From NCBI GenBank assembly GCA_016748015.1, contig JAAOMT010000295.1:868001-932000 (forward strand): a stretch of DNA of 64,000 nt. The letters are read 5' to 3'. Both the position numbers and the translations under genes were made by a program. The notes under the pieces were generated by a model that made no database searches, had not been told where the DNA came from, and worked only from the letters and a program-made list of their open reading frames with translations. Of this stretch, positions 23,126-61,026 are shown piece after piece (position 1 is the first letter of the stretch; each line of letters begins with the position of its first letter). The stretch is from Geosiphon pyriformis uo1 (lineage: Eukaryota; Fungi; Glomeromycota).

Positions 23126-23154
23126 TTGTCAAAATTCACTTATTTCCTTATTGT

Positions 23155-24743: not shown

Positions 24744-27387
24744 GAAGAAATTCTCTTTTTTGCTTTTAACTTAACTGATGATGACCATGACATGAATGAA
24801 TTAGCAATCAACACTTTTAAATCAACCAGAAAAAAGAAGAAAGCCAAGGTTGATTTCGTTTTAGATCCCAACAAAGCCTCAATTTCCACTGCTGATAACA
24901 ATAAGCCACCAAAAGCCAAAGTTTTTAAGAACCCTCCAAAGTTGGAATCCCCAGAAATTGTACAAAAATCTGAACCCTATTTTGTTGTCAAAGATCTCAT
25001 AGAAACCCCAGCACACATTACTTTTGGCCAGTTAATGACTCATTCACAGTTCAGAAAAGATCTCTGCAAATCTCTAATCCTCAAGAAGAAAACACCAAAG
25101 ACTAATAAACACCCTCACCAAGCTGAACTTGCTGACAACAGCAATGTCACTCTTCTAATTTGCAAAGCACAAGTGGCTGGTTACTTTATTGACTTGATCC
25201 TAGACAGTAGATCATCTGTTAGTGTAATTGCCAAACACTTCCTTGAAGCAATTGGTAGAAAAATTGATGAGTCTTTCACCCAACCAATGACCAACATACA
25301 TGGTAACAAAAAAAAAGGTCTAGATATTGCCAAAGCTATTTCTGTCTGCATCAATAACATTAGTATTGAAACTGACATGGAAGTTTTTGAAGCTAAAGAA
25401 TACACCATTATTGTTGGCAATGAGTGGCTCAAGAAAGCAAAAGCCTTACTCAACTATGAACTTTGTGAGCTAACCATAAGATGTAGTGAAAAATCTATTG
25501 TGGTTAAATGTTGTCATTAAACAACTTCTTCAGCAACCAAATAAAATCAAGAAGATGAGCAATCAGAAGAATCAGATGATGAAGAAAGTGATGAAGAAGA
25601 TAAACAAGAAGAATAAAAAGAAACTGCTGAACTCACCTACACCATCTTTACTAGCAATGACAAGCCACTAGACAATGTTAAAGCTAATAGAAAGGAATCA
25701 TTGTAAATGGCAAGCTGATCTGCTGGCCCTACTATGATATTCTAAGAAGAACCTTTGACCAAAAGCCTGGCAAGAAAGCCAAATACAGTTATTGGTGGTA
25801 TGACTCTTGTGCCTGGTGCTGGTGCAATAAACCTTTGTATTTTCCAAGTGATGAATGCAAATCATGCCTAATCTATTACAAAGATTGAGAACCAATTGGT
25901 CTAATACTAAGAGATGAATTAAAAGAAGTACAGAAGTCCTTTAAGAATGAACCACTTGAGATCTAATTATTAGTAGTAAAACAAAGAAAACCCTTCCCAG
26001 AAGAAAGAAAGATAGACATTGAAAATCTGTTGGCAAGAAACAGCCCAATTATCTCAAAAAAAGGTGATACTCCAGGACGAACCCATGTAATACAACACAC
26101 TATTACCACCAGAGAAACTCATCTCATCCATTTGAAGCCTTACCAATTCAATTGCCAAAATGATGAGTTCATTAAGAAAAAAATAAACTGGATAAAAGAA
26201 CTTAGATTCATATAAGAAACCAAGAGTGAATGGGCTTTCTCAGTTGTAGTGGTATTCAAGAAAGATGGAACCCTATGCTTCTGTGTTGACTACCGCCAAT
26301 TAAATGCTATCACTGAAAGAGACATGTACTCACTTCCCAAGATTGATGCAATGCTGAACCAATTCAAAAATACTGCTTTCTTTTCAACTATTGATCTAAC
26401 TGCTGGATTCTGGCAAGTAGAGATGAATCCAGAAAGCCAGAAGAAAACCATCTTCATTACCAAGTATGGCACCTATGAATTCACAATCATGCCTTTTGGT
26501 CTTACCAATGCCCCTCTTATCTTTTAATGCTTAATGGATAAAGTATTTGAATTAGTGAAAGAAAACTTTGTTCTGGTCTATCTGGACAATATAATAGTGT
26601 ACTCAAAAACCTGGGATGAACACCTTGAACATTTGCAAAAGGTTTTTGATCTTTTCAGAAATGCAGGTCTCAAGATCAACCCAATCAAATCTTTCTTTGG
26701 AAAACAATTCACCCAATTCCTTGGCCATTTTATTACAAAAGATAGAATTTTCCCTGATCCAGCCAAAGTTGAAAAAGTTCAGAACATAAGACAACCAATA
26801 AATGTTTGTGAGTTATGTTCTTTCCTTGGTTTGGCCTCCTATTATCACAAATTTGTTAAGAATTTCTCCAAAATTGCCTCTCCACTCAATCAGCTACTCA
26901 GAAAAATGTTAACTACTATTGGAACACACATCAGCAGAAAGCATTTGAAACTCTCAAAGAAAAATTGGCTACAGAACCTATTCTCAAGCAATCTGATCTG
27001 GATCAACCTTTTATTTTTCACACTGATACATCTGGCTATGGACTTGGTGCTGTTTTTTCACAAAAAAATGAAGATGGCAGAAAACATGCAATAGTCTATG
27101 CCAGTAGAACTCTTACACCAGCAGAAAAGAACTATTCAATTACTGAGCAGGAATGCTTAGCAATTGTTTGGGCTACCAGCTACTGGGATAAGTATCTCCT
27201 TGGTGTGAAGTTTTTGGTGGTAACAGATCACCAAGCTTTGGTTTGGCTGTGCAACAAAAAAAAGCTAGAACATAAACAGATAGCCTGCTAGATACTCCAC
27301 TTGAATGAATTTGATTATAATATTTAACACCATAAAAGAGCTAATCATTAAAACGCCAAAGCTCTTTCCAGACTTACCACTAAGTAA
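24702..27387 (+). pseudogene. B1 Pol: aspartic protease, small Cys-rich linker, RT, RNase H (no integrase, no dUTPase)
   Basis: Motifs LILDS(G>R)SSVSVI, FCVDYRQLN, MPFGLTNAP, VYLD(D>N)II, TDTSGYGLGAV and VTDHQAL. Ends LSRLTTK* at 27385-27387. Confidence 0.9.
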
Positions 27388-27451
27388 CAGTACAACCTTC
27401 CAAACCAAACCAATCTATTTATTAGTAATTCTCTTACAACCAAACACGATA

Positions 27452-28754
27452 ATGGACTTAGACAACTACTTTGCCTTAATGGAATTTTTGGGTAAAAAAC
27501 AATACCCACTGGAATACACTCGACAGCAAAGAGAACATTTGTGCAAACAATCAAATTTTTATTTGATCCACCAGAACCAATTATATAAAAGAAATAGAAA
27601 AAATTCTGACCACCCCCAAAGAGTCATAAAATTTGAAGAAAGAAAAATTGTGATCTACAACATGCACACTGATCCATTAGCTGGACACTTTGGAAAAACA
27701 AAAACAATTTAAAAAACTCTAACTTGTTATTATTGGCCTACCTTAGGAAAAGACATTGCTAAATACATCAAAACCTGTAATACCTGCCAAAGAAGAGGAA
27801 AACCCAATCACAAAGAAGACATCCATCTAATCTCTGTTGGCCAACCCTTTAACAGAATTGGTATAGATGTTGTTGGACCATTAACAATAACTCCTGATGG
27901 CAACAGATATATTATTACAGCTACTGACTATCTTATAAAGTGAGTAGAAGCAAAAGCCACCCCAGATCAAACAGCAGTTTCCATTGCTAATTTCATTTAT
28001 GAAGATATCATTTGTCGCCATGACTGCTCCAAAGAATTTTTATCTGATAGAGGAAGAGCTTTTCTCAGTACACTGATTGAAGAACTTTGTAAAAAAATGG
28101 GAATATGTTACAAACTTTTCTCCTCTTATTACTCCCAAACAAATGGCTTAGTGAAACGTTTCAATAGAACACTGTGTGAAATCTTAGCCATAACAAGTGA
28201 AGAAACAAACTTATGGGACAAAGTACTGTCTTCAGCTTTGTTTGCTTATAGAACTGTGAATCATGACATAACAAGTTATGAACCTTTTTATCTGCTCTAT
28301 GGATGCATGGCAATACTACTAATAAAAACTGACATTGAGACAATACTCTTTGAAGAAATCACAATAGCAAATTACACAAAAAAGACTGGGTACCATTCTT
28401 AACTCATTGGTAGAAGCATGAATAGTTGCTTTTGAAAAGATAAAACAGTTTTAAGAAAAGCTTAAAAAGAAAAAAACCTATAAAACACTTTCTTTAAGAG
28501 TTGGTAGCTTGGTATTAGAATACTGTTCAGACAGAGACAATGTTTATGATGATAAATTTTCTAGCCAGTGAAAAGAACCCTTTATAGTCAACAAAGTTTT
28601 GAACAATGGTTCTTATATTCTTCAAGATCAATCCAGAACAATCTTTAATGATTGTTCTATTCATGACATGCAACTCAAGAAATATCACAAATGATCTGAT
28701 TGGTTATCTGTTGTAATAATACTGACCCAAATAATCAGCAAAAATCAGATATAA
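27452..28754 (+). pseudogene. B1 integrase as a separate ORF
   Basis: ATG at 27452 (MDLDNYFALMEFLG), HHCC (H..GHFG..C..C), core IGIDVVGP..SDRG..QTNGLV(E>K)RFN, and a GPF-like C-terminal region. No chromodomain is seen. Confidence 0.88.
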
Positions 28755-32461: not shown

Positions 32462-33157
32462 TTATAAGATAGTTTCATGCTCAATGATATCTCTAATTTC
32501 GTTTGATAACATAACCTCCTTCTCAAGACTGAGCTCCGTCAAAGTCCAAGTACTGTTTGTTATTTCCAGATAATAATCCAAAATTATTGAAGAAATTTGG
32601 TCTGAAAATTGTTGAAATTTCAGTTCTGTGAGCTTTTCAATGTATTGAATCTTCAAAGGTTGAAAAATTGGGTTTTGTAGTACATTTTCACAGGTGTGGA
32701 ATAGGTCATAAAGTCTAAGAGCAGCTCTGAGCCTGTAGTGACTGTTTGTTGATCCAGCTATTGTCTTGAATTCATTGTGGAGTTGTTTCTGAATAGCTTC
32801 TTTTGTGAGGTTTGCTGTTGTAAGTTCCAATTTCCGTTCGTAGAGTGTTTTTTCAATGTGAAAATATCTATAGATTGGAGAATATTCAGTGTTTTTCTCA
32901 TTGCGACACAGTTGAAATTTTTGTTGAATTGTAGTATTTGGTGGAATACTAATCAGAGTGAGCATTAGATTTTCTCTTAAAGCAAGCTTTAAAAGTTCTG
33001 GCAGGTGAATTCCAGTATAACTTCTTGTGTTCTTTTTATACGGGTAATATTTTTGTGAATTTGGGGCTAAATTTGTAACTACTTCTGTTTAGGTATAATT
33101 AATGTGGTTTCTAGTAACAGTAATAGATGATTCGGGTATTGTTTTTAAAGCTAACAT
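32462..33157 (-). pseudogene. A1 ORF3: unknown protein in the env position
   Basis: Closely matches A2 43442-44113 (YRYFHIEKTLYERKLEL..RLRAALRLYDLF). Confidence 0.82.
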
Positions 33158-33320
33158 TAGTTTTTGGGATAATTGTTGAATGTTTTAAAGAATAGTCATT
33201 ATAAGCAATTTGAAATAAAAGAAAATTATTTTTGGTGCATGGGTTTTTATGTTATTTTTGTTTTGTTTTTGTGAGATTGTTTTTAAATTATAAGAAGATA
33301 ACTATAATAATTAATTTAAA

Positions 33321-34705
33321 TTAAGTGTTCAAGTTGGGAGACTGTTCAATGACAACTATTGGTTCTAAATTTCGGGAAATGTCTTTAGAATTGATTAAAG
33401 AGAAATGTGTACCAATTTGTGAAATTAATAGTTCAGGATTGTTTCTGGAATTATAGTGTTTCAAACGATCTCCATGTGCAACTTTTGCTAGAATTTTGTT
33501 ATCAAGTCTTAGCTTATATGATCCGTTGCCTAAAACTTTATGGATAAAGAATGGTTCATCCTATTTATTTTCAAATTTCTCACTCCATTGTTTTTCAGAT
33601 TTAGTTCTGTGTAAGAGAACTTTGTTTCTGATTTTAAATTTATTGGTGACTGGAGGCAATTTGTTATTATGCCGTTCTTTTTGTTGAGCTTGGGAGTTTT
33701 CAATATGGGTGGCTGCTATTCATTATTTTTCTTCTAACGTGCTAAGCAGAGTGTAGGCTTTTCATTGAAGTGTTTCCTGAAAATTGTTTTTATTGATTGG
33801 TTGTGCTGGGTATGTTTCCACTGTGAACTTAATTGGTAGTGTTACTGTCCTTCCATAAGTTAAATCAAATGGTGTGTGTTTTGTGGTATCTTGTTTTAGT
33901 GTTCTATATGCTAGTAACACTGATGGAATAAAGATATCCCATTCTTGCTCAAAATCAGTTGAGACTTTGGCTAATGACTCACACAATGTTCTGTTAAAAC
34001 GTTCCACAAGTCCGTTTGTTTGTGGATGGTAGGGCAAAGACAGAGGTCTTTTGACATTGAATCGTTCGCAAATTTCTTGTATTAGATTGTTCACAAAATG
34101 TGTATCCTGGTCGGATAAAAGTTCAATCAGACATCTGTGTCTACAAATGATGTCTTCATAGATGAAATTTGCTACTGATTTTGCATCTGCTCATTGAATG
34201 GCTCTGGCTTCAGGCCATTTAGTAAAATAGTCTACAGCTACTGCAATATAACGGTTTTCTTGAGTGGTGATAGATAATGGTCCAACTAAATCAATACCAA
34301 CTCAGTCAAAGGGTTGTTCAACTTTGATTGAATTTAATGGTTCAGTAAGGTGTGTTCCTCCTTTTCTTTGACAACTATCACAAGATTCGACATATTTGTG
34401 AATGTTTTTCCTCATTTGAGGCCAAAAATAGTATTCTAGTGTTCTTTGAGTGGTGCTATCTTTTCCGAAGTGTGCTGATGAAGGATCTGAGTGCATGTTG
34501 TATAATATGGTCTCTTTTTCCTGTTCTTGTATTAGTCTGAGTGATTTGTCTGGGTTTTTGAAATTTTGATGATAAATAATATTGTTGTGTAAAAAATATT
34601 GTTTGGCTTGTTGTTGTAGTTAATGTTTTTTATCTAGAGACCAATTTGTTGAGATTGTTAATGTTTCTAAATATTGTTTAAGATTGTTGTAGTTTCTGAA
34701 TTCAT
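33321..34705 (-). pseudogene. A1 integrase as a separate ORF
   Basis: ATG at 34705, 49 nt after the RNase H stop (34755-34757). Motifs MHSDPSSAHFG..CDSCQ and YHPQTNGLVERFNRT; C-terminal EPIVVIEQ. Confidence 0.88.
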
Positions 34706-34754
34706 TGTTTGTTGGCTCTTTTGGTTGGTTAAGTTGAGTGTTGGTTTTTGTTTT

Positions 34755-35215
34755 CTAATCTTGTCTCATTCTGAAGAGACAGTCTACATTGGTGTGGAGT
34801 TTTCCTGGTTTGTGATGTACTATGTATCGATAATTTGCTAGAAATCCTGTCCATTGGGTTTGTTTTGTATTTAGCTGAGTATTTTTGTTCTGAAGCTATT
34901 TGAGTCCAATATTATCAGTGATAATATCAAATTCTTTAGGCCTGAGATAAAGGTTGAAGTGGTGTAGGGCCCAAATTACGGCTGCTGTTTCTAGTTCTGT
35001 GGCAGGGTAGTTTTTCTCAGCTGGTTTTAATGTTCTGTTAGCATAAGCAATTACTCACTTATTTCCATTGTCATCTAGTTGTGATAAGATGGCACCAAAG
35101 GCAGTATATGAAGCATCTGTAGCTAGTCGAAATCGGTTGCTAAAATCTGGGTAGGTGAGGATTGGGGCTGTTGTTAGTTTTTCTTTGAGAATTTCAAAAG
35201 CTTTTTGGTGTTCAG
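34755..35215 (-). pseudogene. A1 RNase H portion of Pol (continues from 45047)
   Basis: Reads EHQKAFEILKEKLTTAPILTYPDF..ATDASYTAFGAIL and ends RMRQD*. Confidence 0.88.
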
Positions 35216-35899
35216 TTTTACCAGACAAAATTAGAGATATCATTTAGCATGAAATTATCTCATAATTCCTATCATTAATTAGCATATATTATCGTTTCAA
35301 ATTATCACTTATTACATTAGCAAAGAATGTCCGAAATTATCATTTAATTAATAACCCAAATTGTACACAACACAAATGTAACCTAATTGCGATGATCAAT
35401 CATGCAATACCCCAAACTATGTAACATTCAAAAGTTCACCGAAATTTATAGAAATTCACTGAAATAATTGATAGTTTACCGAAATATCTAATAGTTCACA
35501 GAAATAACTTGTAGTTTGCCGAAATGTATCTTTAGTTCAGCGAAATTGTAGAAAATAGCAAAGTTCAAGTTCATAGAATAGTGTTATGACAAGTTGTATA
35601 AAAGAAGAGCTTCTCTCTTCAAAAAAATGTATCTTACTTTATATTTGTCACTTAGAACCATTCATACACACACAGAAAAAAAATAAATATCAAATAATTT
35701 GAAAAACCAAATTCTTTAATTATTGCACTTGGAAAATCCCCAAAACCCAACTAACGTTTTGAAATTGATTAGCTACCAATTTCAGTAAACTGTTAGTGAC
35801 TCCAGGCCTGGATAGAAAACATTTCCCTTAATAAAATCCTATTTCTTTTACACTTCTTTTATTTTTCTTTTCTTTTTTTATTACAATTATTAGGGTAGC

Positions 35900-36063
35900 C
35901 TACAGACAAAATTCCTGTAGAAGAGTTGACTTTCACAGCAAAGTAACTACACATTTTTAGTGAGCTTCCAGACAAGCAATTCCTGGGAAAGAGTTGACGT
36001 TTACTACAACGTAACTACATAAAGCAACTGGCATGGAATTGGCCATTCCACTCATAAGCCCAG
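35900..36063 (+). promoter_or_regulatory. Duplicated hairpin module in the 3' part of LTR-A (putative structured RNA element)
   Basis: AGTT-G-ACTTT-CACAGC-AAAGT-AACT (35924-35948) and AGTT-G-ACGTT-TACTAC-AACGT-AACT (35992-36016), each preceded by a CAG..CTG stem. Present in all five LTR-A copies. Confidence 0.6.
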
Positions 36064-36241
36064 CAAGTTCAAATTATAGAAGATAATATGAAGTTAAAAA
36101 TTCAGTCACTAGAGGTTCAACCACACCCAGAAAACGTGAATTCACAGCAAATAAGTATTAACAACATTACAGAAAAGAGACCAAAAACCTCCGGTAATAT
36201 TTGGTGCTCTCCCATGGAAATAACACAGCAACAAATTCAAA

Positions 36242-39200
36242 GTGGCGACTGCCTCAGACATCACAACCTTAAAGTATTATCAATTAATTTACACACACTA
36301 CAAACAACAATTTGAAATACACGATGGAATCATAGCTTTCAAGAAAACACTTTTTCAATACATCGAAAATCAAATCAATGACTACCTCTTTGGGAACTAT
36401 AACATTACAACAGTTAAAAGAGATCTTCTTGAGAACATACTACACTATTCTAACACTGAATTAGAAAACATTAGTGCTGAAGCTTGCGCTACTTATTTTG
36501 AGGAACTCGATTATAATATTATTTGATTCTGTGAAGAAAAATATCTTGCAAATGCACAATTTGCCTTTGAATTCGAATTTGATCCTGAAACCAGTAGCAA
36601 CAAAAGACAAAAAGATAACCGACCTGTTCACACAACACCCAATACTCCCAAAATATCATTCAAACATCTACAAACATCTGAACAAAAAACCAGCTCAAAA
36701 CTTCCACTTACTATCATACCTTTTCCAGCTTCACTTGCACAAGCACAAACATTTAATTCACCCTTGAATCAATTTGCAAGACCAGAAGATTTTACATCAC
36801 TCAGAAGTCCCACCAGACAACAAGAACCTCTTCAAACTAGTTCCAATCTCCTTGATTTTCTAGCTGAAAATCAAAGTGAACACTCTGAGACAGCAGCAAA
36901 CGAAGAAAACAACTCTGAAATAACTGAAAAAGAATCAATAGACAGTGAAAACGAAGAAGACAAAATGACAACATACATCACAAAAATCCCTGACTTTAAT
37001 GGAGAAAACATTGAGACCAGTCCTCAAAAATGGCTCGACCAAGTTACTAAAGCTGGAGATGCAAATGGATGGAATGCCACCAGAATGTTAAGAACAATTC
37101 CATACTTTCTCAAAGAAACAGCAGGAGAATGGTTTGAAAACCTGGCCGCCCCATTCAATGATTGGAACGCTTTCAAAGCAGCCTTCCTTGAACAGTTCAC
37201 CGACAATAATACCTCCATCACTCTTCGCAATCGTTTTCAAAATATCAAACAAGAACCCTCTGAATCTGTTATGACTTATATTGGGAAATTCAACAAACTT
37301 CTCAGATGGATTTGCCAACTCGAGACAAATGATTATTATTCTGATGCTCAAATCTTGGATCAATTTATTGCTGGTCTAAAAGATAAACTAATTAAAAAGG
37401 TTTGCCCACACGCGCCAGAAGATTTAAACTCTGTCATACAGCATGCGAAAAGATACGAAATGCCCATGGAAGAGGCCAATCATACAAAACTTGTAAATTT
37501 GGCAATTGGAGAAACCAGCTCAGCAGCTGAGGAAAAAATTGACCAACTCACAAAGAAGGTCGAAAACTATTTTACCAACCAACAACAACAAAGATATCAA
37601 CCACCCCAAAGACGAAATCAAAATAACTTTGCACCACTTTTCAATAACCAGCTCCAGAATTGCCATTACTGTGGAATCTCTGGCCACTGGAAAAGAGATT
37701 GCAGAAAGTTACAATGAGACCAACAAAATAGGGATAATTAATGTTACTCTCCACCACAGCAATCTTATTATCAACCATTACCACCAGCTTACTATCCACC
37801 AAAACCCCAATACCAAAATAACTATTATCAGCCCACTCCACAACCAATCCAACAGCAATACCAACAACCACCCACACAACATTATCAAGTACCTGCTCAA
37901 AGACTGATTACACAAAATCAATTCACACCACAAAACTGATACCAAGTAAACAACAGTAGAATCAGTTCAAACAACCAATTGGTTCCCCGAAATACCACTC
38001 AACTAAGACCTAACCACTACCACACTCAACCCAGTTATTTAACAATGCCAGAAGAACAGGATTTTCACCATACTGCACTCTCGGAAGGTAGAGCTACAGC
38101 ACAACAACAACAAAACCCTTCTCATAACCACACCACAATTCCACCAGCCCAAATTGCTGAAAACACCAATCTCTCTGATATCTTTCCTTTCAAATTTGAA
38201 GCAAATGAATCACCATTCTTGCTTAGCAATACAGCGGCTAATGAGCAAAAAGCCATCACTGCAATGTACACAGAAGCTGAAGTAAAAGGAAAACCAATTC
38301 ACTTGATCCTAGACAGTAGATCCGCCGGAAGCATTATCACCTACCAGTTGATACAACAGTTGAAAAAAAATGTCAACCGACCAGCTCAAACAGTAATTGT
38401 CACTGCTGATGGCATGAAAAAGACCCCAGTAGGAGAAATTGACAATTTTCTGTTCACTCTTGATGGAATTACCATTCCAGTCAAAGTTCTTGTAATGAAT
38501 GCACCCCAATACCAAGCTCTCGTCAGAAATGATTGGCTTCAAAAAGCCAATGCTAATCTGAATTGGGAAACACAAGAGTTAACAATCTCCTACCAAGAAC
38601 AACACGCCCAGGTACCTGCCATTTGTGATACATTCAACAAACGCTCTGAAAAAGCCCCAGCTTTTGAATTCGAACTGGAAGAGAAAAAACCCCTCATTGA
38701 AACATTCATGGCTCTTGGATCAATGTCCAACTGGGCCGATGAAACAGAACAAAAACATTTTACTCCACACTCTGAACCCGAAACCTCTGGATAAAATATC
38801 CCTTACTCAAAACCCAAACCAAGGAAACAACACCCCTATATTTCCCTTAAATGTAAGAACTGCCACAAAAAACTATCGTCAATGAGAGCCTGCATTTCAC
38901 CTGAAGAAGAATATGAGAATCATACTTGTTATTACTGCAAGGCTTGCCACAGAGAGTGATGGGGCCATCTAATAAAAAGGAGCAGAAAATGGGACAACAC
39001 CCTTTGTTTGACTTGTGGAGATATGCTACTGGAAGAATGCAATTGGATTGATGTAGCAATGAGAGGAGGCATCTGTGATCAGACCTGCCAATATGCTTTA
39101 TCAATTTCAGAAAAAGTAAAAAGAGGAACACCCTTTAATGCAGCATACAATAGTGCTTTCAACAAACTTTATTACTACCCTCATGATGCTGAGATGATTT

Positions 39201-41844
39201 TCGACTTAGCAATGGCATTAATTAATGGAGCTACCAAAGAAGATGTTTGTTAATGAAGGAAGCAGAATATATTGAATACACTATAGAATTAGCTGGATTC
39301 GATTACGAAGATGAAGTAGAAGTCTACCACCAAATTGCAAGTCACACCTATCCAACTCAAAAAGCTCAAATTCAATGATTAGAGCAAATGAACATTAGGC
39401 TATGTGAAGAATGCATTATGTCTTGTAATGAACAATGGTGTTCTGAATGCTATGCTCTTAGTATCCCCTTGCCCAGCGAAAATAATGAGAATGAAATTGA
39501 ATTTGGAGAACCTAAAGAAACGGAAGAAATTGAAACAACACCCATCTACCTTATCGAAAATCAGCCTGCCTTACAACTTAAATATTTCAACAACAACGGA
39601 CAAGAAATAAAACCTGAAAAAGCACACGAAATTGATGCTGGATATGACCTAAGATATCCAGGCAAGGATACTCTTGTTCTCAAACCCAAATCTCTCACAA
39701 AAATCAATCTCAAAATTGCACTCGAAATCCTGCTAGGAGCAATAGTTCAAATTGCCTCCCGGTCCTCTCTGGCAAGCAAAGGAATCAATGTTAGAGGAAG
39801 AATAATTGATGCTGGATATATTGGAGACATAACAGTGATGCTTCAAAATAAAACTGACAAACCATTCAAGATCGAACATGCTGAAAAAATTGCCCAAGCT
39901 ATTTACCTACCCTTAATCAACATTTCGGGTTTGCAACTAGTCAATCAAAGAGAACAATTAGGAAAAAGCGATAGAGGAACCCAAGGTTTTGGTTCAACTG
40001 GACGATTCACAGTTCCAGTTAATATAGCACTTAACACACAGAATGAATCCCATCAGATTCTCAGACTTCCACAACCGATTACTATCTCACCCTTTGAAAA
40101 ACATCCAGAAATCTACACCTGCCCAAAGTCAACAACCACACAACAAATTTTTGAGTCCAATGAACAAGTCTGCTTGGAACATAATATTTTGATCCCAAAC
40201 ATTTATATTCTAGAAGGAACAAAGAAAGTCCGAGTTACTTTTTACAACCCCAATAATTACCCCATAATTTTATTAAATAATTTAGAAATTGGAGTTATTC
40301 ACAGTAATATATTTCAACAAGAATTACCCCAAATAGTTCCCAATTTCTCTGAAATTATTGGACATTCAATACCAAAAACCAACCCAAACCCCAGCTCCGA
40401 AAACTACTATGTTGTCATGGAAAAACTATCTCAAATCAACATGGGACAACTTGAACCACAACAACAGACCCAGCTCAAAGAGCTAATTGCAGAATTTGCT
40501 GACATCTTTGCTGAAAACAACAATGACTTAGGAAGAACTGATTTGGTTTAACACCAAATCTATATAGGAGATGCCAAACCAAGACAACAACAAGCCTACC
40601 GAGTTGTCCCAGAAAGTCACCAATTTATCTGAGAAGAAGTACAACGGATGCTTAACAATGGGCTTATTCAATCATCAATGAGCCCATGGGTCTCACCTGT
40701 GGTCCTAGTTAAAAAGAAAAATGGAAAGATACGATTTTGTGTTGATTACCAACAACTCAACAATGTCACCATTGGGGATGCCTACCCTCTTCCCCGAATT
40801 GATGACATGTTGGATGTTCTTGAAAAGTCCAAATACTTTTCAACATTAGATTTAGAGAGTGGATACTGGCAAGTTGCTATGGATCCCAAAGACCGCCCCA
40901 AAACAGCATTCACCACTCAAGGAGGAAATTACGAGTTCAATGTAATGCCTTTTGGATTATGCAATGCACCAGCAACATTCCAAAGACTCATGGATGTTGT
41001 TTACAAAGGCCTCTTTTGGAAATCAGTAGTAGTTTATCTTGATGACACTGATGTTTATTCACCATTTTTTGAGCTACATTTAATTCACCTGCGAGAAGTT
41101 TTTCAACGATTACGGAAAGCAGGATTGAAACTGAACATTGAAAAATGCTACTTTGGAAAAACAAGTTTAGCTTTTCTTGGTCACATTGTTAGCAAAGATA
41201 GAATTAAACCAGACCCCAGAAAAATCAGTACTGTCAAGAACTTTAAGACTCCACAAAATACCACAGAATTAAGAGGATTTATTGGATTAGCATCCTATTA
41301 CTGAAAATTCATCAAAAGATTCTCAGAAATTACAAAACCCCTCAACCAGCTCACTACTAAAAATGTTGAATACAAATAGACAGAAGAACACCAAAATGCC
41401 TTTGAGATACTTAAGAAAAAACTCACAACAGCTCCAATCTTCGCCTACCCAGATTTCAGCAACTGATTCCGGTTAGCAACTGACACCTCTTATACTGCCT
41501 TTGGTGCCATCCTATCACAGTTAAATGACAATGGAAATGAGCGAGTAATTGCTTATGCTAGTAGAACATTAAAGCCAGCCAAAAAGAACTACCCCGCAAC
41601 AGAATTAGAAACCGCAGCAGTAATCTGGGCCCTACATCACTTCAACCTTTATCTCAGACCCAAAGAATTTGATATTATCACTAATAATATTGAACTTAAA
41701 TGGCTTCAAAACAAAAACACCCAGCTGAACGCAAAACAAACCCAATGGACAGGATTTTTAGCTAATTACCAATACATCGTATACCACAAACCAGGAAAAC
41801 TCTACACCAATGTTGATTGTCTCTCAAGAATGAGACAAGATTAG
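36242..41844 (+). pseudogene. A2 Gag-PR-(Cys-rich)-dUTPase-RT-RNase H polyprotein, single ancestral ORF of ~1870 codons
   Basis: One frame from 36242 to 39253, a 1-nt deletion relative to A1, then one frame to the stop at 41842-41844. Motifs CHYCGISGHWKRDC, LILDS(G>R)SAGSII, dUTPase I-V (DAGYDLR, ASRSSLA, IIDAGY, KIAQAI, RGTQGFGSTG) and VYLDDT. Confidence 0.92.
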
Positions 41845-41893
41845 AAAACAAAACCAACACCCATTTGAATTAACAGCATCAAAACAACAAACA

Positions 41894-43279
41894 ATAAACC
41901 CTGAAAACTACAACAATCTCAAACAATATTTGGAGACATTAACAATCCCAACAGATTGGTCCCCAGATGAAAAACATCGGTTACAACAACAAGCCAAACA
42001 ATATTTTCTATACAACAACATTATCTATCATCGAAATTCCAAAAACCCAACCAAACCACTCAGATTAATACAAAAACAGAAAAAAGAGACCATTTTATAC
42101 AATATGCACTCAGATCCTTCATCAGCACACTTCGGAAAAGATAGCACCATTCAAAGAACACTAGAATACTACTTTTGGCCTCAAATGAGAAAAGACATTC
42201 ACAAATATGTCGAATCTTGTGATAGTTGTCAAAAAAGAGGAGGAACTCACCCTACAGAACCTTTAAATCCAATCAAAGTTGGACAGCCTTTTGACAGAGT
42301 TGGTATCAATTTAGTTGAACCACTATCTATTACCACTTAAGAAAACTGTTATATTGCAGTAGCTGTAGACTATCTTACTAAATGGCCTGAAGCCAGAGCC
42401 ATTTAACGAGCAGATGCAAAATCAGTAGCAAATTTCATCTACGAAGACATCATTTGTAGACATAGATGTCCAATTGAACTTTTATCCGATCAGGGAACAC
42501 ACTTTGTGAACAATCTGATACAAAAAATTTGTGAACAATTCAATATCAAAAGACCTCTGTTTTCACCCTACCATCCACAAACAAACAGACTTGTGGAACG
42601 TTTTAACAGAACATTGTGTGAGTCATTAGCCAAAGTCTCAACCGATTTTGAGCAAGAATGGGATCTCTTTATTCTATTAGTGTTACTAACATATAGGACA
42701 TTAAAACAAGATACCACGAAACACACACCATTTGATTTAACTTATGGAAGGACAGTAACACTACCAATTAAGTTCACAGTGGAAACATACCCAGCACAAC
42801 CAATCAATAAAAACAATTTCCAAGAAACGCTTCAGCAAAGAGCCTACACTCTGCTTAGCACATTGGAAAGAAAATGACAAATAGCAGCCACCCATATTGA
42901 ACACTCCCAAGCTCAACAAAAAGAACAGCATGATGACAAATTGCCTTCAGTCACCAATAAATTCAAAATTGGAAACAAAGTTCTCTTACACAGAACTAAA
43001 GCTGAAAAACAATGGAGTGGAAAATTTGAAAATAAATGGAATAGACCATTCTTTATCCATGAAGTCCTAGGCAATGGATTATACAAGCTAAGACTTGATG
43101 ACAAAATCCTAGCAAAAGTTGCACATGGAGATTGTTTGAAACACTATCATTCCAGAAACAATCCTGAATTATTAATTCCACAAATTGGTACACATTCCCC
43201 TTTGGTCAGTCCTGAAGATATTCTCCGAAACTTAGAACCAATAGTTGTCATTGAACAACCTTCCAACCTGAACACTTAA
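41894..43279 (+). pseudogene. A2 integrase as a separate ORF (start ATG decayed to ATA)
   Basis: ATA at 41894 aligns with the A1 ATG. HHCC, SDQG, QTN.LVERFNRT, WN(G>R)PFFI..GNGLYKL; ends EPIVVIEQPSNLNT*. Confidence 0.88.
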
Positions 43280-43441
43280 TTTAATTTTACTAGTTATTCT
43301 CTTATAATTTAGAAACAATCTCACAAAAACAAAACAAAACAAAAATAACATAAAAACCCATACACCAAAAATAATTTTTTATTTTTTCAATTGCTTATAA
43401 TGACTATTCCTTAAAACATTCAACAATTATCCCAAAAACTA

Positions 43442-44113
43442 ATGTTAGCTTTAAAAACAATACCTGAATTATCTATTACTGTTACTGGAAACTACATAAA
43501 TTATACCCAAACAGAAGTAGTTACAAATTTAGCCCCAAATTCACGAAAATATTACCTGTATAAAAAGAACACAAGAAGTTATACTGGAATTCACCTGCCA
43601 GAACTTTTAAAGCTTGCTTTAAAAGAAAACCTAATGCTCACTCCAATTAGTATTCCACCAAATACTACAATTCAACAAAAACTTCAACTGTGTCACAATG
43701 AGGAAAACACTGAATATCCTCCAATCTATAGATATTTTTACATTGGAAAAACACTTTACAAATGGAAACTGGAACTTACAACAGCAAACCTCACAAAAGA
43801 AGCTATTCAGAAACAACTCCACAACGAATTCAAGACAACAGCTGGTTCAACAAACAGTTGCTACAGGCTTAGAGCTGCTCTTAGACTTTATGACCTATTC
43901 CACACCTGTGAAAACGTACTACAAAACCAAATTTTTCAACCTTTGAAGATTCAATACATTGGAAAGCTCACAGAACTGAAATTTCAACAATTTTCAGACC
44001 AAATTTCTTCAATAATTTTGGATTATTATCTGGAAATAACAGACAGTACTTGGACTTTGATAGAGCTCAGTTTTGAGAAAGAGGTTATGTTACCAGATGA
44101 AATTATCTCATAA
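43442..44113 (+). CDS. A2 ORF3: unknown 223-aa protein in the env position, frame still open
   Basis: Uninterrupted ORF conserved with A1 that crosses the PPT into the 3' LTR. No signal peptide or transmembrane stretch is visible. Confidence 0.8.
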   Translation: MLALKTIPELSITVTGNYINYTQTEVVTNLAPNSRKYYLYKKNTRSYTGIHLPELLKLALKENLMLTPISIPPNTTIQQKLQLCHNEENTEYPPIYRYFYIGKTLYKWKLELTTANLTKEAIQKQLHNEFKTTAGSTNSCYRLRAALRLYDLFHTCENVLQNQIFQPLKIQYIGKLTELKFQQFSDQISSIILDYYLEITDSTWTLIELSFEKEVMLPDEIIS

Positions 44114-44281
44114 TTCCTATCATTAATTAGCATATATTATCATTTCAAATTATCACTTATTACTTAGCAAAGAATGTCCGAAATTATCATTTAATTAATA
44201 ACCCAAATTGTATACAACACAAATGTAACCTAATTGCGATGATCAATCATGCAATACTCCAAACTATGTAACATTCAAAAG

Positions 44282-44392
44282 TTCGCCAAAATTTATAAAA
44301 ATTCGCCGAAATAATTGATAGTTCACCAAAATATCTAATAGTTTGCAGAAATAATTTGTAGTTTGCCGAAATGTATCTTTAATTCAGTGAAA
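44282..44392 (+). repeat. Six TTCGCCGAA-type palindromic sites at 20-bp period in LTR-A
   Basis: Units start at 44282, 44302, 44322, 44342, 44362 and 44383, and the array recurs in the other LTR-A copies. It lies upstream of a TATA-like tgtataaaag (~44442). Confidence 0.8.
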
Positions 44393-45046
44393 TTGTAGAA
44401 AATAGCAAAGTTCAAGTTCATAGAATAGTGTTACGACAAGTTGTATAAAAGAAGAGCTTCTCTCTTCGAGAAAATGTATCTTACTTTAGATTTATCACTT
44501 AGAACCATTCATACACACACAGAAAAAAAATAAATATCAAATAATTTGAAAAACCAAATTCTTTAATTATTGCACTTGGAAAATCTCCAAAACCCAACTA
44601 ATGTTTTGAAATTGATTAGCTACCAATTTCAGTAAACTGTTAGTGATTCCAGGCCTGGATAGAAAACGTTTCCCTTGATAAAATCCTATTTCTTTTACAC
44701 TTTTTTTATTTTTTTTTTCTTTTCTTATTACAATCATTAGGGTAGCCTACAGACGAGATTCCTGTAGAAAAGTTGACTTTCACAGCAAAGTAACTACACA
44801 TTTTTAGTGAGCTTCCAGATGAGCAATTCCTGGGAAAGAGTTGACATTTACTACAACGTAACTACATAAAGCAACTGGCATGGAATTGGCCATTCCACTC
44901 ATAAGCCCAGCAAGTTCAAATTATAGGAGATAATTTGAAGTTAAAAATTCAGTTACTGGAGGTTCAACCACACCCAGGAAACGTGAATTCACAGCAAATA
45001 AGTATCAACAACATTACAGAAAAGAGACCAAAAACCTTCAGTAACA

Positions 45047-52564: not shown

Positions 52565-53878
52565 TTATACTTGATTTTTGCTGATCATTTGAGTCAGTAT
52601 TACCACAATAGGCAGCCAATCAGGTTGTTTATGATATTTTTTGAGTCATGTATCATAAACAAAATAATCATTGAAGATTGTTCTGGATTGATCTTGAAGA
52701 ATATAAGAACTATTATTCAAGACTTTGTTGACTATAAAGGGTCTTTTTTACCAGCTAAAGAATTTATCACCATAAACATTGTCTCTGTCAGAATGGTATT
52801 CTAGTACCAAGTTACCAATACTTAAAGAAAGTGTTTTATATGTTTTTTTTTTCTTAAGCTTTTCTTAGAACTGTTTTATCTTTTCAAAAGCAATTATTCA
52901 TGCTTCTATCAAGAAGTCAAGAATGGTATCAAGTCTTCTTTGCAAAATGTTTTTGTAATTTCCTATTGTGATCTCTTCAAAGGGTATTGTTTCAATATCA
53001 GTTTCTATTGGTAGTGTTGCCATGCATCCATAGAGCAGATAAAAAGGTTCATAACTTGTTATGTCATGATTCACAGTTCTATAAGCAAACAAAGCTAAAG
53101 GCAGTACTTTGTCCCATAAGTTTGTTTCTTTACTGGTTTTGGCTAGAGTTTTATATAATGTTTTATTGAAATGTTTCACTAGGCCATTTGTTTGAAGGTG
53201 ATAAGGAGAGGAAAGTTTATGATGTATTCCCATTTTCTTGCAAAGTTTTTTAATCAATGTACTGAGAAAAGCTCTTTCTCTATCAAATAAAAGTTCTTTG
53301 GAGCAGCCATGATGGCAGATGATATTTTTATAAATGAAATTGGCTATTGAGACTGCTGTTTGGTCTGGAGTGGCTTTTGCTTCTATCCACTTTGTAAGAT
53401 AGTCAGTAGCTATGATAATATATTTGTTACCATCAGAAGTAATTGTTAAAGGTCTAACAACATTTATACCAATTTTGTCAAATGATTGACCAACAGAGAT
53501 TGGATGGATATCTTCTTTGCAATTAGATTTGCCTCTTTTTTGGCAGATGTTACAGGTTTTGATGTATTCAACAATGTCTTTTCCCAAGGTAAGCCAATAA
53601 TAGCAAGCTAAAGTTTTCTGAATTGTCTTTGTTTTTTCAAAGTGTCCAGCTAATGGGTTAGTGTACATGTTGTATATTACAATTTCTCTTTCTTCAAATC
53701 TGATGACTCTCTGAGAACAGTTAGAATCTTTTCTGTTTCTTTTGTATAATTAGTTCTGGTGGATCAAATAAAAATTTGATTGTTTGTGCAAATGTTCTCT
53801 TTGCTGTCAAGTGTATTCAGGTGGGTATTGTCCTTTACCCAAAAATTCCATTAAGGTAGAGTAGTTGTCCAAGTCCAT
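52565..53878 (-). pseudogene. B2 integrase as a separate ORF
   Basis: ATG at 53878, 64 nt after the RNase H stop TGA (53943-53945). Includes ORF 52898-53668 and ends DWLPIVVILTQMISKNQV*. Confidence 0.88.
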
Positions 53879-53942
53879 TATCGTGTTTGTTTATGAAAGA
53901 GTTACTAATAATTAAGTTGGTTTGGTTTGAAAAGTTGTACTG

Positions 53943-56900
53943 TCACTGGATGGTAAGTCTAGATAGAGTGTTGACATTTTGATGATTTGCTCCTTTGTTG
54001 TGTTGAATATCATAGTTGAATTCATCCAAGTGAAGTATCCAGCAAGTTATTCGTTTGTGTTCCAGCTTCTTTTTCTTGTGCAGTCAAACCAAGGCTTGAT
54101 GATCTGTTACCACTAAGAATTTTGCACCAAGAAGATATTGATCCCAGTAGTTGGTAGCCCAAACTACTGCTAGACATTCTTGTTCAGTAACTGAATAGTT
54201 CTTTTCTGCTGGTGTGAGGGATCTACTGGCATATGCTATGGCATGTTCTCTGCCATTTTCATCTTTCTGTGAAAGAACAACACCAAGTCTATAGCCAGAT
54301 ATATCAGTGTAGAGGATAAAAAGTTGGTCCAGATTAGGTTGTTTGAGAATTGGTTTGGTAACAAGTTTTTCTTTTAAAATTTCAAAAGCTTTTTGTTGAT
54401 GAGTGCCCCAGTGATAATTGACATTTTTTTTGAATAGCTGATTGAGAAAAAAGGCAATTTTGGAGAAATTCTTGATAAATTTGCAATAGTAAGAGGCCAA
54501 ACCAAGGAAAGAGTGTAGTTTAGGAACATTTATTGGTTGTCTAATGTTTTGAACTTTTTCAACTTTAGCTGAGTCAGAAAAAATTCCATCTTTTATAACA
54601 AGATGACCAAGAAATTGGGTGGATTGGCGTCTAAAAAAAGATTTAATTGAGTTGATCTTAAGGCCAGCATTTCTAAACAGGTTAAAAACCTTCAAGATAT
54701 TCATCCCAGGTTTTTGAATATATCATTATGTCATTTAAGTAAACCAGAACAAAGTTTTTTTTTACTGATTTAAATACTTTATCCATTAGGGTTAAAAGGT
54801 GAGAGGAGTATTAGTGAAACCAAAAAGCATAACTGTGAATTCATAGGTGTCATACTTGGTGATAAAAGCAGTTTTTTTTCTGCTTTCTGGATCTATCTCT
54901 ACTTGCCAGAATTCAGCAGTTAAATCAATGGTTGAGAAGAAAGCAGCACCATTGAATTTATCTAGCATTGCATCAATTTTGGGAAGTGGATACATGTCTC
55001 TTATAGTAATGGCATTTAATTGGTAGTAGTTAACACAGAAGCATAGGGTTCCACCTTTCTTGGATATCACTACAATTAGAAAAGCCCATTCACTCTTGGT
55101 TTTTTGTATGAATTCAAAATTTTTTATCCAGTTTATCTCTTTCTTGATAAACTTATTATTGCGTTGATTAGATTGATAAGACTTCAAATGGATAGAACAA
55201 GTTTCTTTGGTGGTGATAGTGTGTTGTATCACATGGGTTCATTTAGGGGTGTCATCTTCTTTTGAGATAACTAGGCTATTTCTAGCCAACAAATTTTCAA
55301 TGTTCATTTTTCTTTCTTCAAGAGAAGGTTCTTTTTGTTCTACAACTAGTGATTGAATTTCAGGTGGTTCATTCTCAAAGAAATTTTGTACTTCTTTAAA
55401 TTTTTCTCGAGGTATCAAGCTAATTGGTTTCCAATCTTTGTAATAGATTAGGCAGGATTTGCATTTATCACTTGGTAAATACAAAGATTTATTACACTAG
55501 TACTGTGCACAAGGGCCATGTCACCAATAACTGTATTTTGCTTTCTTGCTAGATTTTTTGTCAAAGATTCTTCTGAGGATATCATAGTAGGGCCAGCAGA
55601 TCAGCTTGCCATTTACCATGATTCCTTCTTTGTTAGCTTTAACATTGTCCAGTGGCTTGCCATTGCTGGTGAAAATGGTATAAGTGAGTTCAGCAGTTTT
55701 TTTTGGTTCTTCTTAATTTTTTTTATCATCACTCTCATCATTATCTGATTCATCTGATTGTTCTTCTTCTTGGTTCTGTTTGGGTACTGGAGGAGTTGTC
55801 CAATGTCAGTATTTAACTACAATGGGTTTCTCATTACATCTAATAGTTAGCTTACAAAGCTCATAGTTGAGTAGCACTTTAGCTTTTTTAAGCCACTCAT
55901 TGCCAACAATTATGGTGTACTCTTTTACTTTAGATACTTCCATATCAGTTTCAATGCTGATACCATTAATGTGGACAGGAATAGCTTTGGCTATGCCCAG
56001 GCCTTTTTTCTTGTCACTATGTATATTGGTCATTGGTTTTGTAGATGGTTCATCAATTTTTTACCAATTGCTTTTAAAAAGTGTTTGGCAATGACACTAA
56101 CAGATAATCCACTGTCCAGGATCAGATCAATGAAATAACCAGCCACTTGGGCTTTACAAATAAGAAGAGTAACATTATTGTTGTCAGCAAGTCCAGCTTG
56201 ACATGAGTGCTTATTGGTCTTTGGTGTCTTTTTCTTTGGTATCAATGATTTGCAAAGGTCTTTTCTGAACTGTAGATGGGTCATCAGTTGGCCAAATGTA
56301 ATGTGTGCTGGGGTTTTCATGAAATCTTTAACAACAGAATAGGGTCCAGATTTTTGTACAATTTTTGGGGGTTTCAATTTTGGTGGATTTTTAAAAACCT
56401 TAGCCTTTGGTAACTTATTGTTATCAGCAGATAATTTGGATGCTTTGTTTGGGTTCAAAACAAAATCAACCTTGGCTTTCTTCTTCTTTCTGGTTGATTC
56501 AGAGGTGTTGATTGCTAATTCATCTATATTATGATCATCATCAGTTAGATTAAAAGCATAAAAAAGGTTTTTTTCTGGTTGGTTTGCACTCTCACTCTTT
56601 GGAGGTGTGTCTACCAGTTTAAAGACTGATAAACAGTGGCTTCAACTAAGGGATTCTCTCCAAAAAAATTGATGTTGACATGATTGGGTCTTTAATTGGG
56701 AACATTATTATTGTTGGGTTTGTTATTCTGGATGTCATTATTTCTGGGAGCTGGAGGAGGCAATGGAGGATTGTTGCAGTCTTTAGAAAAGTGTTCAGTT
56801 AGTTCACAGTGATAGCACACAGGTGGGCCACAATTTTTTTGTCTTTGATATGGTAGTTGTTGGGACTAATTAAAATGGAGTTCAAATTTGGGTCTTTGGG

Positions 56901-59613: not shown

Positions 59614-60996
59614 TTAATTTGATGTGTTTGGTTCAATGATTATAATTGGTTCTAGATCTCATAGAATCTCATTTGGTTGGACTAGTATTTGTTGTACTCT
59701 TAGTTGTAGAATATTATTGATGGATGATGATACTATATGGTAATATGGTTTTAGTTAATCATCATATGCTGTTTTGGCTAAAATTTTGTTGTCCCATCTT
59801 AATTTATAAGCTTTATTTCCTAGAATTTCTTCTATGTGAAATGGTCTGTTCTATTTAGAGTTGAATTTTTTACTTCATTGTTTTTTTGCTTTAGTATAAT
59901 GCAAAAGTACTTTGTCTCCAATCTTGAATTCAATTAGTTTATCCAGTAGTTGGTTATTGTGTCTTTTTTTTTGTTTTTCTTGTGACTTTTGAATATTATC
60001 AGCTGTTCTTTGCCATTTGTTTTCTAGTATTTCCATTAAGTTATATGTTCTTCTTAACAATGTTTTTTAGAAATTGTCTTCTGTTATTGGTTCAGTTGGA
60101 TACATGCTGACTTTTATCTCTACTGGCACTGTTATTGTTCTACTGTATACTAATTTAAATGGTGTTGCTTGTGTAGTGTTTTGCTTCATTGTTCAATAAG
60201 CAAATAATACTAATGGTATAAACAAATCTCATTTGTCTCAATTTTTTTGGCTGATTTTGGCAATTGCTTTACACAATATATTATTAAATCTTTTGATTAA
60301 GCCATTGGTTTGTGGATAATATGGTGATAATAATGGTCTTTTTATTCCAATTCTTTGACTTAATTTTGCTAATGTTCTATTCACAAAATAAGTTCTTTGG
60401 TCAGATAGTAATTCTTTTGAATATTTGTGTCGACAAATCAAATCTTGATAAATAAATTTGGCAACAGATTCTGCATTTGCTTTTTGAATGGCTTTTGCTT
60501 CTGGCCATTTAGTAAGATAATTCATGACTACTGCTATATATCTGTTTCTTCTGCTAGTTATTGTTAATAGTCTGACTAAGTCAATTCCAATGTGATCAAA
60601 TGGCTGTTCTATTTTGATTGGTTTTAGTAGTTCACTTGGTTTTGTTCCTTCTTTTCCCTAACATGCATCATAATTTTGAACATATTGAATGATGTCTGAA
60701 TACATTGATGGCCAATAGTATTTTTTTTTGGTTTTTTCTATGATTGCTTCTTTGTAAAAATATTCTGCTGTTGAATCAGAGTACATGTTAAATAATATTG
60801 TTTCTTTTTCTGGTTTTGTGATTACTTTGGTTAGTTAATCTGAATTCTTTCTGTTTTTCTAATAAAGTATATATTGGTAAATAATAAAATATTTGGACTG
60901 TTGTTTGATATGGTTTCGTTTCTTTTGAGGTAATTTCTTCTTAAACTATTGAATATTTATAAAATATTGAAGTTGTTAATATTTTTGTGTATTTAT
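59614..60996 (-). pseudogene. C integrase, decayed
   Basis: Motifs YLTKWPEAKAI, SPYYPQTNGLI and FKIGDKVLLH; C-terminal EPIIIIEPNTSN*. Confidence 0.82.
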
Positions 60997-61026
60997 TTTT
61001 TGTTATATTTTTGGATTGAAATGTTC

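Follow-up and report, generated by a model that had tools for sequence, protein, structure and literature searches.

A large lineage of LTR retrotransposons, present in mycorrhizal-type fungi and in soil metagenomes, almost certainly encodes its integrase (IN) as a separate gene, judging from sequence comparison, with a start codon of its own behind the stop that closes the reverse transcriptase-RNase H (RT-RH) frame. In the textbook account, IN reaches the particle and gains activity solely as a cleavage product of Gag-Pol. The arrangement was noticed in a stretch of 64,000 nucleotides from the fungus Geosiphon pyriformis, here called the window, and the initial annotation took it for an apparently undescribed polycistronic Ty3/gypsy lineage (gag-pol / IN / ORF3) in which IN is initiated separately. 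The single RT-RH clade and the split relatives described later in the text bear this out. As to novelty, no description of a separate IN ORF was found by full-text literature searches, most hits being judged by title and opening of the abstract, with most subscription journals, Repbase/GyDB and supplements lying outside the search.

LTR elements are given as 41.2% of G. pyriformis (PMC11952901), and five copies in the window carry the junction between RT-RH and IN (Table 1). The stop four residues past the RNase H motif was re-checked and is present in all five, although the minus-strand coordinates first assigned to it are those of the last base of the codon. The starts align across the copies as described, being ATG in A1, B1 and B2 and ATA in A2 and C; in A1 a 1-nt gap right behind the ATG puts it out of frame with the body of IN in this copy. 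The A1 and A2 spacers, which had been called poorly conserved, are 72.5% identical as against 86% and 84% in their flanks, so they have diverged to a moderate degree. Those of B1 and B2 are 84% identical, with flanks at 77% and 91%. All five copies are decayed, with many in-frame stops and LTR pairs 84-95% identical that differ almost entirely by transitions, and the window on its own is therefore suggestive of a split. It holds no tRNA genes. One of three contig-assembled sequencing runs spans all of 39000-45100, with very many divergent contigs, and none of the 15 joints listed from genomic-run contigs over this region (38 more were recorded) has GT..AG ends; such contigs do not bear on expression.

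Table 1. Features of the 64-kb window
Feature	Position	Strand	Details
A2 5' LTR	35209..36199	+	95% identical to the 3' LTR
A2 3' LTR	44088..45046	+	
A2 target-site duplication (TSD)	35205-35208 and 45047-45050		TTGG, 4 bp
A2 candidate primer-binding-site-like motif	36202..36213	+	starts TGGTG
A2 Gag (capsid, zinc knuckle) and aspartic protease	36527..38794	+	decayed; Pfam PF03732, PF19259, PF00098, PF13650
A2 pol stretch with dUTPase domain, between protease and RT	39379..40551	+	PF00692, E 1.3e-21
A2 reverse transcriptase and RNase H	40633..41841	+	C-terminal LSRMRQD; PF00078, PF17917, PF17919
A2 RT-RH stop	41842..41844	+	TAG
A2 intercistronic spacer	41845..41893	+	49 nt, A/C-rich, without AUG (28 A, 13 C, 2 G, 6 T)
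A2 integrase ORF	41894..43279	+	PF17921, PF00665; HHCC zinc finger, DDE core; start (41894-41896) now ATA by decay; interrupted by frameshift and stops
A2 ORF3	43415..44113	+	includes the polypurine tract (44075-44084) and ends inside the 3' LTR
A1 element	about 31520-51231	-	A2 inserted within; TSD ACAG
A1 junction	34703..34757	-	TAG 34757-34755, 49 nt, ATG 34705-34703
B1 element	about 22385-30097	+	TSD ATAC
B1 junction	27385..27454	+	TAA 27385-27387, 64 nt, ATG 27452-27454
B2 element	about 51235-58907	-	
B2 junction	53876..53945	-	TGA 53945-53943, 64 nt, ATG 53878-53876
C junction	60994..61029	-	TAA 61029-61027, 30 nt in frame including a second stop, ATA
Host Na+/H+ exchanger exon	4287..5216	+	identifies the host, at 99% identity to a protein of Geosiphon pyriformis

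The split is established beyond these decayed copies by intact relatives in which the Pol and IN frames are both open. The initial annotation had suggested scoring stop and start in related loci; 80 metagenome loci were examined, and as RH is missing from the contig in 42 of them, 38 are informative. The split architecture occurs in 31 of the 38, or 29 once two decayed loci belonging to a fused group are set aside, and in several loci both frames are fully open, as they are not in the window. One of the loci, L027, is flanked by 435-bp terminal repeats that are 97% identical. The start of IN falls in one alignment column in 99 of the 120 best length-matched homologues, and 119 of the 120 best IN homologues are Met-initiated. 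In the DNA loci the start stands in a strong initiation context, with A at -3 (29/43), G at +4 (38/43) and A at +5 (42/43), a tally that includes three fused loci from outside the clade. The layout is common to dozens of families roughly 35-60% identical to one another, and the HHCC and DDE residues are intact in all 70 aligned INs. Rhizophagus (R. irregularis) has many full-length stand-alone INs: five of the 15 members listed for one cluster measure 430 aa, and five of the 15 listed for another measure 420 aa. In those fused relatives where the RH motif and the zinc finger of IN could both be located, 58-204 residues lie between them. No relatives of IN were found among the viral contigs searched.

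An RT phylogeny, also proposed at the outset, puts 27 of 28 split rows in one RT-RH clade (SH-aLRT 99). The clade comprises 31 rows and is nested among gypsy-like polyproteins, in a tree built without curated references or a copia/BEL outgroup. P0127 is a truly fused protein, lying inside the split clade by IN and outside it by RT. In addition, five Glomeromycotina gene models fuse RT to IN. Four of them (P0124, P0125, P0126 and P0130) are missing the terminal RH motif and join RT to IN at differing points; P0129, from R. irregularis, retains the RH motif and continues into IN, and is known as a gene model alone. Aside from these joins, no fused master inside the RT clade came out of a search for longer forms.

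How IN is made can be approached from the junctions themselves. In nine of 35 loci IN follows the closest ORF ahead of it at distances of -8, -8, -8, -4, -1, -1, -1, +2 and +5, with overlaps of the forms TAATG, ATGA and -8; the other 26 have gaps rather than overlaps, and the window copies have spacers of 30-64 nt. Extra ORFs ahead of IN are overlap-chained too (ATGA twice in L023, -8 in L034, TAATG in L059), and gaps of -8, -4 and +2 occur at the further break that separates IN from ORF3. Eighteen spacers together carry four AUGs where 12.9 are expected (dinucleotide shuffles; 1 in 1000 as low). Because of these stop-start overlaps and AUG-poor spacers, termination-reinitiation on the full-length element RNA is the route we favour, and IN is probably, if by a modest measure of confidence, translated in this way. 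The small subunit would remain on the RNA past the Pol stop; it would restart at once at the overlap junctions, would scan across a short unstructured spacer to the IN AUG in the window's families, and in one subclade may be assisted by a structured RNA next to that AUG. The new start would lie close to the point at which RH and IN are separated by the protease in ordinary elements. Packaging might follow if IN were made on the encapsidated RNA, or bound that RNA, Gag or ORF3. Counting against reinitiation, the AUG depletion and the Kozak context could equally belong to a subgenomic mRNA, as features of its 5' leader. Moreover, the longest true spacers, of 365, 521 and 727 nt, carry 7-12 AUGs, and the longest, that of L027, has no small chained ORF, so crossing it by scanning would be difficult. 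Known viral reinitiation after long ORFs requires an upstream RNA element, according to PMC10275272.

A covarying RNA element was found downstream of the RT-RH stop in 12 loci of one subclade, ending 3-15 nt before the IN AUG. Its 6-bp stem is paired in 66 of 66 cells, with five of the six pairs changed on both sides; these pairings were scored on the 11 sequences from which the structure had itself been drawn by eye. Its loop and bulge are rich in invariant positions. A search of the window with the model gave no match, the best E being 1.7, and the element is absent from the other subclades, nor does the motif match the viral contigs or prokaryotic genomes searched. An Rfam scan of 20 loci gave two chance-level matches (E up to 1), neither of them at the motif, and no IRES or ribozyme family. 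L027, L062, L067 and L079 have another, unlike conserved motif ahead of the AUG, which yields no supported consensus fold.

Four other explanations have to be set against reinitiation. That the stop is a lesion of dead or non-autonomous elements, for which intact masters with a fused Pol supply the missing function, fits the decay of the window copies, but the same layout in dozens of families with open frames and intact catalytic residues, and the lack of an in-clade fused master besides the gene-model joins, make it barely credible; simple decay is rejected, since intact split elements exist. It is scarcely more plausible that an ordinary RT-RH-IN polyprotein is regained by programmed frameshift, by read-through or by splicing out the stop within a small intron. 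In A1, A2 and B1 no break interrupts the IN frame across the stop, so a +1 shift may apply to those copies taken alone; this frame is also open in seven of 18 out-of-frame loci, four of eight in-frame loci have a single stop, and there are the gene models joining RT to IN. However, frame offsets of 0, 1 and 2 occur in 8, 9 and 9 loci, and at 15 of these 26 junctions no single frameshift or read-through event could fuse the frames, so +1 recoding is not the general rule. A slippery-type heptamer accompanies just one of the seven open cases, and 19 of 24 loci lack a local GT-AG intron that would keep the RH motif and fuse the frames. Most of the joined gene models are without that motif, and a conserved initiator Met would serve no need in a polyprotein. 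The 3n+1 spacing by which IN was said to be out of frame in A and B is real (49 and 64 nt), but among relatives it is incidental. Of the three routes first offered for IN, +1 recoding and a stop-removing intron are rejected on these counts, as is read-through, and reinitiation stands as the favoured one.

The main rival to reinitiation is a subgenomic mRNA for IN, arising from an internal transcription start in RH or the spacer, or from a 5' leader spliced upstream of the IN AUG. Spliced subgenomic mRNAs make env and foamy-virus Pol. Such an mRNA would account for every spacer length, including those of several hundred nucleotides with AUGs, and for the start context and AUG depletion close to the start, and AG occurs at or just past the stop in all five window copies. 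Nevertheless, we consider it rather unlikely: it does not predict the recurrent -1, -4 and -8 overlaps or the chains of overlapped ORFs, YAG lies within the final 40 nt in just four of 18 spacers with no conserved acceptor position, and ORF3 would require another mRNA of the same sort. Less likely still is internal initiation on the genomic RNA independent of upstream translation, in which the covarying element would be IRES-like and the A-rich spacers its minimal form. The stem just ahead of the AUG in one subclade and the second motif in four loci are what it would lead one to look for; yet the element is confined to that subclade, the second motif has no supported fold, overlap junctions would need no IRES, and an element drawn by eye could instead serve packaging, IN binding or reinitiation.

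Apart from the split, the elements resemble Ty3/gypsy (Metaviridae) in their LTRs, PBS- and PPT-like motifs, short TSDs and, from Pfam matches, the order Gag-PR-(dUTPase)-RT-RH-IN with an HHCC and DDE integrase. They differ in that IN lies outside Pol, with its own conserved AUG past the stop, and in having an additional conserved ORF3 of no known family. From the DNA-level counts given above (29/38, 15/26 and 19/24), the canonical strategy, with IN inside Pol and released by the protease, would not apply to them. Ogre, foamy viruses and Skipper also depart from a single Gag-Pol, by splicing out the stop region, by a separate mRNA for Pol and by separate ORFs. To our knowledge RT and IN stay in one polyprotein in all three, whereas the break in the split lineage falls between RH and IN. 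A Ginger-type DNA transposon (IN without RT, terminal inverted repeats) was considered and rejected, since in L010, L011 and L027, as in the window, IN follows RT-RH and is enclosed by LTRs. The chromodomain PF00385, which marks the C-terminus of IN in chromoviruses, is absent among the 120 stand-alone INs listed and present in many fused outgroup rows.

The split lineage shares a broad IN group (68 rows, SH-aLRT 97) with proteins from ferns that bear an additional RNase H, a domain that recalls plant Tat, in a comparison made without named reference elements. By RT-RH the plant rows are far from the split clade, so the shared group does not establish kinship with Tat/Athila, and the additional RNase H family had no match in the loci scanned. 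The relevant passages of PMC10508981 and PMC13468544 describe the extra RNase H of Tat as a separate ORF, attribute a fungal origin of Tat to a 2021 paper, and have IN within pol in Tat/Athila, unlike here. As for the junctions, UAAUG/AUGA coupling has precedents in fungal viruses and SART1, and LINE-1 has a 63-nt spacer (PMC10275272, PMC5972666); CHV1, HvV190S, caliciviruses and influenza B belong to the same set of likenesses (PMC10275272, PMC5972666, PMC2699510). The passages concerned in PMC10275272 and PMC5972666 make no mention of an LTR retrotransposon or integrase, and in the split lineage overlap and spacer forms alternate inside one clade, with no TURBS-like element recognised upstream.

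ORF3, predicted to be all-helical, appears family-wide and follows IN across the clade, and in one relative it is joined behind IN. Its profile matches A2 (E 8.8e-4) and A1 (E 9.2e-6), B2 matches the family weakly (probability 6.7%), and no match was found in B1 or C. No Pfam family matched more than one of 109 members, nothing among PDB sequences fell below E 0.38, and Foldseek against PDB and viral models gave no match at E 0.001, the best VIA-align Z being 4.9; these missing structural matches do not amount to a new fold.

Tentatively, an old and very diverse LTR clade may have swapped Pol cleavage for operon-like coupling, with Gag-Pol, IN, ORF3 and captured ORFs made separately from one mRNA. 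In one subclade a new structured RNA would steer ribosomes to the IN AUG, by restart or by internal initiation, and ORF3 would act in packaging or targeting by bringing free IN to the particle or the cDNA. A clade making IN separately must have some other packaging route, and can set the level of IN apart from that of RT. It supplies dozens of natural eukaryotic junctions for reinitiation or internal initiation, from overlaps through long spacers, together with a candidate RNA element. The model fungus R. irregularis contains intact members in multiple copies. In annotation, stand-alone IN ORFs get labelled as DDE transposases or are joined via doubtful predicted introns.

In all five window copies (A1, A2, B1, B2 and C, decayed gypsy-like elements), RNase H (RH) is ended by a stop codon four residues past an L-S/F-R/Q motif. 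The stops are TAG, TAG, TAA, TGA and TAA, the spacers that follow are 49, 49, 64, 64 and 30 nt long, and the aligned first position of the integrase (IN) is ATG in A1, B1 and B2 and ATA in A2 and C. The initial annotation is thus confirmed on this layout. As the copies carry many stops and their LTR pairs are 84-95% identical, they cannot prove the split alone.

Among relatives, stand-alone IN is, from protein and DNA sequences, the rule. A homologue search restricted to 251-800 residues gave 1389 matches, of which the best 120 were examined; these are 392-464 aa long, 119 begin with Met and 99 start in one alignment column with M-D/E/N-x-x-x-Y. Named organisms among the matches are Rhizophagus irregularis and R. 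clarus. Entrophospora came in through cluster look-ups, which also show R. irregularis with many full-length copies spread over different contigs (five of 15 members listed are 430 aa in one cluster; five of 15 listed are 420 aa in another). Since this search left out long proteins, the opposite search was made at 791-2255 aa; its close matches were one metagenome protein and, from Glomeromycotina, five gene models. In P0124, P0125, P0126 and P0130 the terminal RH motif is missing and reverse transcriptase (RT) is joined to IN at differing points, which fits introns made up by gene predictors; the fifth model, P0129, retains the motif and, as predicted, joins RT to IN. P0127 is a real RT-RH-IN fusion whose C-terminal part is the domain (E 3.8e-27) of the downstream frame, ORF3.

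The loci studied are the best 80 among 553 confirmed metagenome stretches. RH is absent from the contig in 42; the other 38 comprise 31 split and 7 fused loci, the split falling to 29 on removal of L077 and L080, decayed members of a fused group. Several split loci (L010, L011, L018 and L027) have fully open frames, those of L010 encoding Gag-Pol (1479 aa), IN (418) and ORF3 (147), and L027 is flanked by 435-bp terminal repeats. An RT-RH tree of 97 rows, a quick search with no bootstrap, places 27 of 28 split rows, four of which are window copies, in one clade with four gene models (SH-aLRT 99) and leaves L058 and P0127 outside. The IN tree is less clean: its core of 53 rows (support 90) takes in P0127 and misses five split loci, which sit among fused rows. 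Outgroups in the trees were best matches, not curated references. IN is almost certainly a separate gene, and this architecture, as read from these alignments, is real and clade-wide; the intact relatives with open frames bear out the earlier proposal that IN is its own ORF.

Three routes to its expression had been offered: reinitiation, splicing and +1 recoding. The last does not hold as a general rule. The stop-to-AUG offset was taken in 26 split loci and is 0 in 8, 1 in 9 and 2 in 9; of the full 29, L060 was left out for want of a located start, L058 because it falls outside the clade and L009 because it nearly duplicates L010. Among the 18 out-of-frame loci, 11 have an IN frame that is closed at the Pol stop, and two or three stops interrupt 4 of the 8 in-frame ones; a single frameshift or read-through therefore cannot join the frames in 15 of 26. 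Frameshift signals are detectable where present: by eye, the gag-pol junction of L011 has a TTTAAAC heptamer followed by a stem, which suggests a -1 frameshift site. Gag/pol breaks vary by family, L010 being fused and L027 broken after the protease. Nor does an intron deleting the stop fare better, a fusing GT-AG candidate (donor at most 60 nt past the RH motif) being possible in only 5 of 24 loci.

Reinitiation is the route to which we give a little better than an even chance. Relative to the closest ORF of at least 60 aa on its upstream side, the IN start lies at -8 to +5 in 9 of 35 loci, including three TAATG, one ATGA and three -8 junctions. Similar overlaps chain extra ORFs ahead of IN in L023, L034 and L059 and occur at some IN-ORF3 junctions. 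They resemble the UAAUG and AUGA coupling reported in SART1 and in viruses of fungi and animals; LINE-1 reinitiation is reported to cross a 63-nt spacer (PMC10275272, PMC5972666). At the IN start, position -3 is A in 29 of 43 cases and position +4 is G in 38. With three near-duplicate loci set aside, 18 spacers totalling 1435 nt contain 4 AUGs versus 12.9 in dinucleotide shuffles, a count as low arising in 1 of 1000; this depletion is equally compatible with IN being made from a subgenomic mRNA of which the spacer is the leader. Against reinitiation count the majority of gaps without overlap (24-163 nt in 21 of 35 and larger in 5, three of these being artefacts of a broken RH frame with true gaps of 36-136) and three true spacers of 365-727 nt with 7-12 AUGs. 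The ORF before IN in L023 is restriction-endonuclease-like (Mrr_cat_2, E 5e-9), with ATGA overlaps on both sides.

Under reinitiation, ribosomes would read the full-length RNA through Gag-Pol and halt just past RH, or past a tail of variable length, 587 aa at most (L027); a fraction would restart at the IN AUG and once more at ORF3. About 70 residues precede the zinc finger at the N-terminus of IN (67-71 in 44 of 49 pattern-bearing sequences), and because this extension resembles the RH-to-zinc-finger stretch of fused elements, the IN start codon appears to have taken the place of a protease site.

In 12 loci of one subclade, a motif of about 40 nt ends 3-15 nt before the IN AUG; in it, an A-rich linker separates GU-GNRA-GC from a 6-bp stem whose loop reads CA-NN-GUGA; L008 has a weak variant. 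Every cell of the stem is paired in an alignment of 11 sequences, with two-sided changes in 5 of 6 pairs; its covariation score was reached by 0 of 500 shuffles and slid controls were 32-44% paired, controls that flatter because the structure was drawn from the same related sequences. The motif shows a predicted RNA structure at the IN start to be under selection in that subclade. It has no Rfam match, an exact-pattern search of viral and prokaryotic collections gave none, and it is absent from the window. A sister subclade has a second conserved motif 20-35 nt before the AUG, with no supported fold in its four loci; a GU-GNRA hairpin-like motif lies upstream of it in L027 and L079.

Coordinates of features in the window and in metagenome loci (L handles)
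Feature	Position	Strand	Remark
Element B1	window, about 22385-30097	plus	
Element A1	window, about 31520-51231	minus	interrupted by A2
Element A2	window, 35209-45046	plus	inserted into A1
Element B2	window, about 51235-58907	minus	
Element C	window, beyond 58900	minus	
A-like LTR, truncated	window, 21688-22384		insertion site of B1
dUTPase domain of A2	window, 39379-40551		Pfam
LINE-like remains	window, 7847-13142		decayed
Inverted related segments	window, 8-2076 and 13621-15917		with the LINE-like remains
Poly-T loose end	window, 44689		inside A2 3' LTR
RNA element	L006:288-337, L007:179-228, L009:1123-1172, L010:4457-4506, L013:579-628, L014:231-280, L024:169-218, L028:122-173, L032:2-51, L039:439-488, L046:486-535, L056:13-62		
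Second motif	L027:7399, L062:29, L067:57, L079:251		TGCGTAAG core
Gag-pol junction	L011:3135-3216		
Restriction-endonuclease-like ORF	L023:521-1237		before IN
Post-RH C-terminal tails	L010:3500-4441, L027:4950-6705		315 and 587 aa
Nucleoside-kinase-like ORF	L073:9158-10066		by eye

These elements have the structure by which Ty3/gypsy is defined but do not follow its polyprotein rule. In plant Tat elements, as described in PMC10508981 and PMC13468544, the separate ORF is an extra RNase H, not IN. No published account of a separate IN ORF in LTR elements was found in literature represented mostly by titles and abstracts, and two AMF transposon papers, including PMC11952901, do not describe element anatomy in the parts seen.

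Most elements have ORF3, of 120-280 aa, after IN. Its profile recovers 530 representatives when clustered at 50% (of the best 150, 147 are at most 300 aa) and matches A1 and A2 in the window; the product is predicted with high confidence to be all-helical (pLDDT 95.8), with no family match and no clear fold match. ORF3 is fused behind IN in P0127, which suggests a role associated with IN. The post-RH tails of L010 and L027 have no Pfam match. In L073, a fused out-of-clade element, the kinase-like ORF starts 3 nt past the Pol stop.

A host exon in the window is 99% identical to a Na+/H+ exchanger of Geosiphon pyriformis, which assigns this DNA to a fungus of the Glomeromycotina; the share of LTR elements in this genome is given as 41.2% (PMC11952901). 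The decayed LTR elements of the window are nested by insertion into one another, with 4-bp target-site duplications at three insertions; a B LTR is the insertion site of A1. By Pfam the elements have the gypsy order Gag, zinc knuckle, protease, dUTPase (family A, between protease and RT), RT, RH and IN; family C has a similar but decayed dUTPase-like stretch by eye, and none was seen in family B. CpG is strongly depleted across the window (observed/expected 0.06-0.4 within elements) and decay is dominated by transitions, consistent with methylation-driven mutation. The LINE-like remains have endonuclease and RNase H matches (Pfam). The poly-T loose end, a lead and in itself no sign of expression, occurs in four contigs of run X2, a run whose type was guessed.
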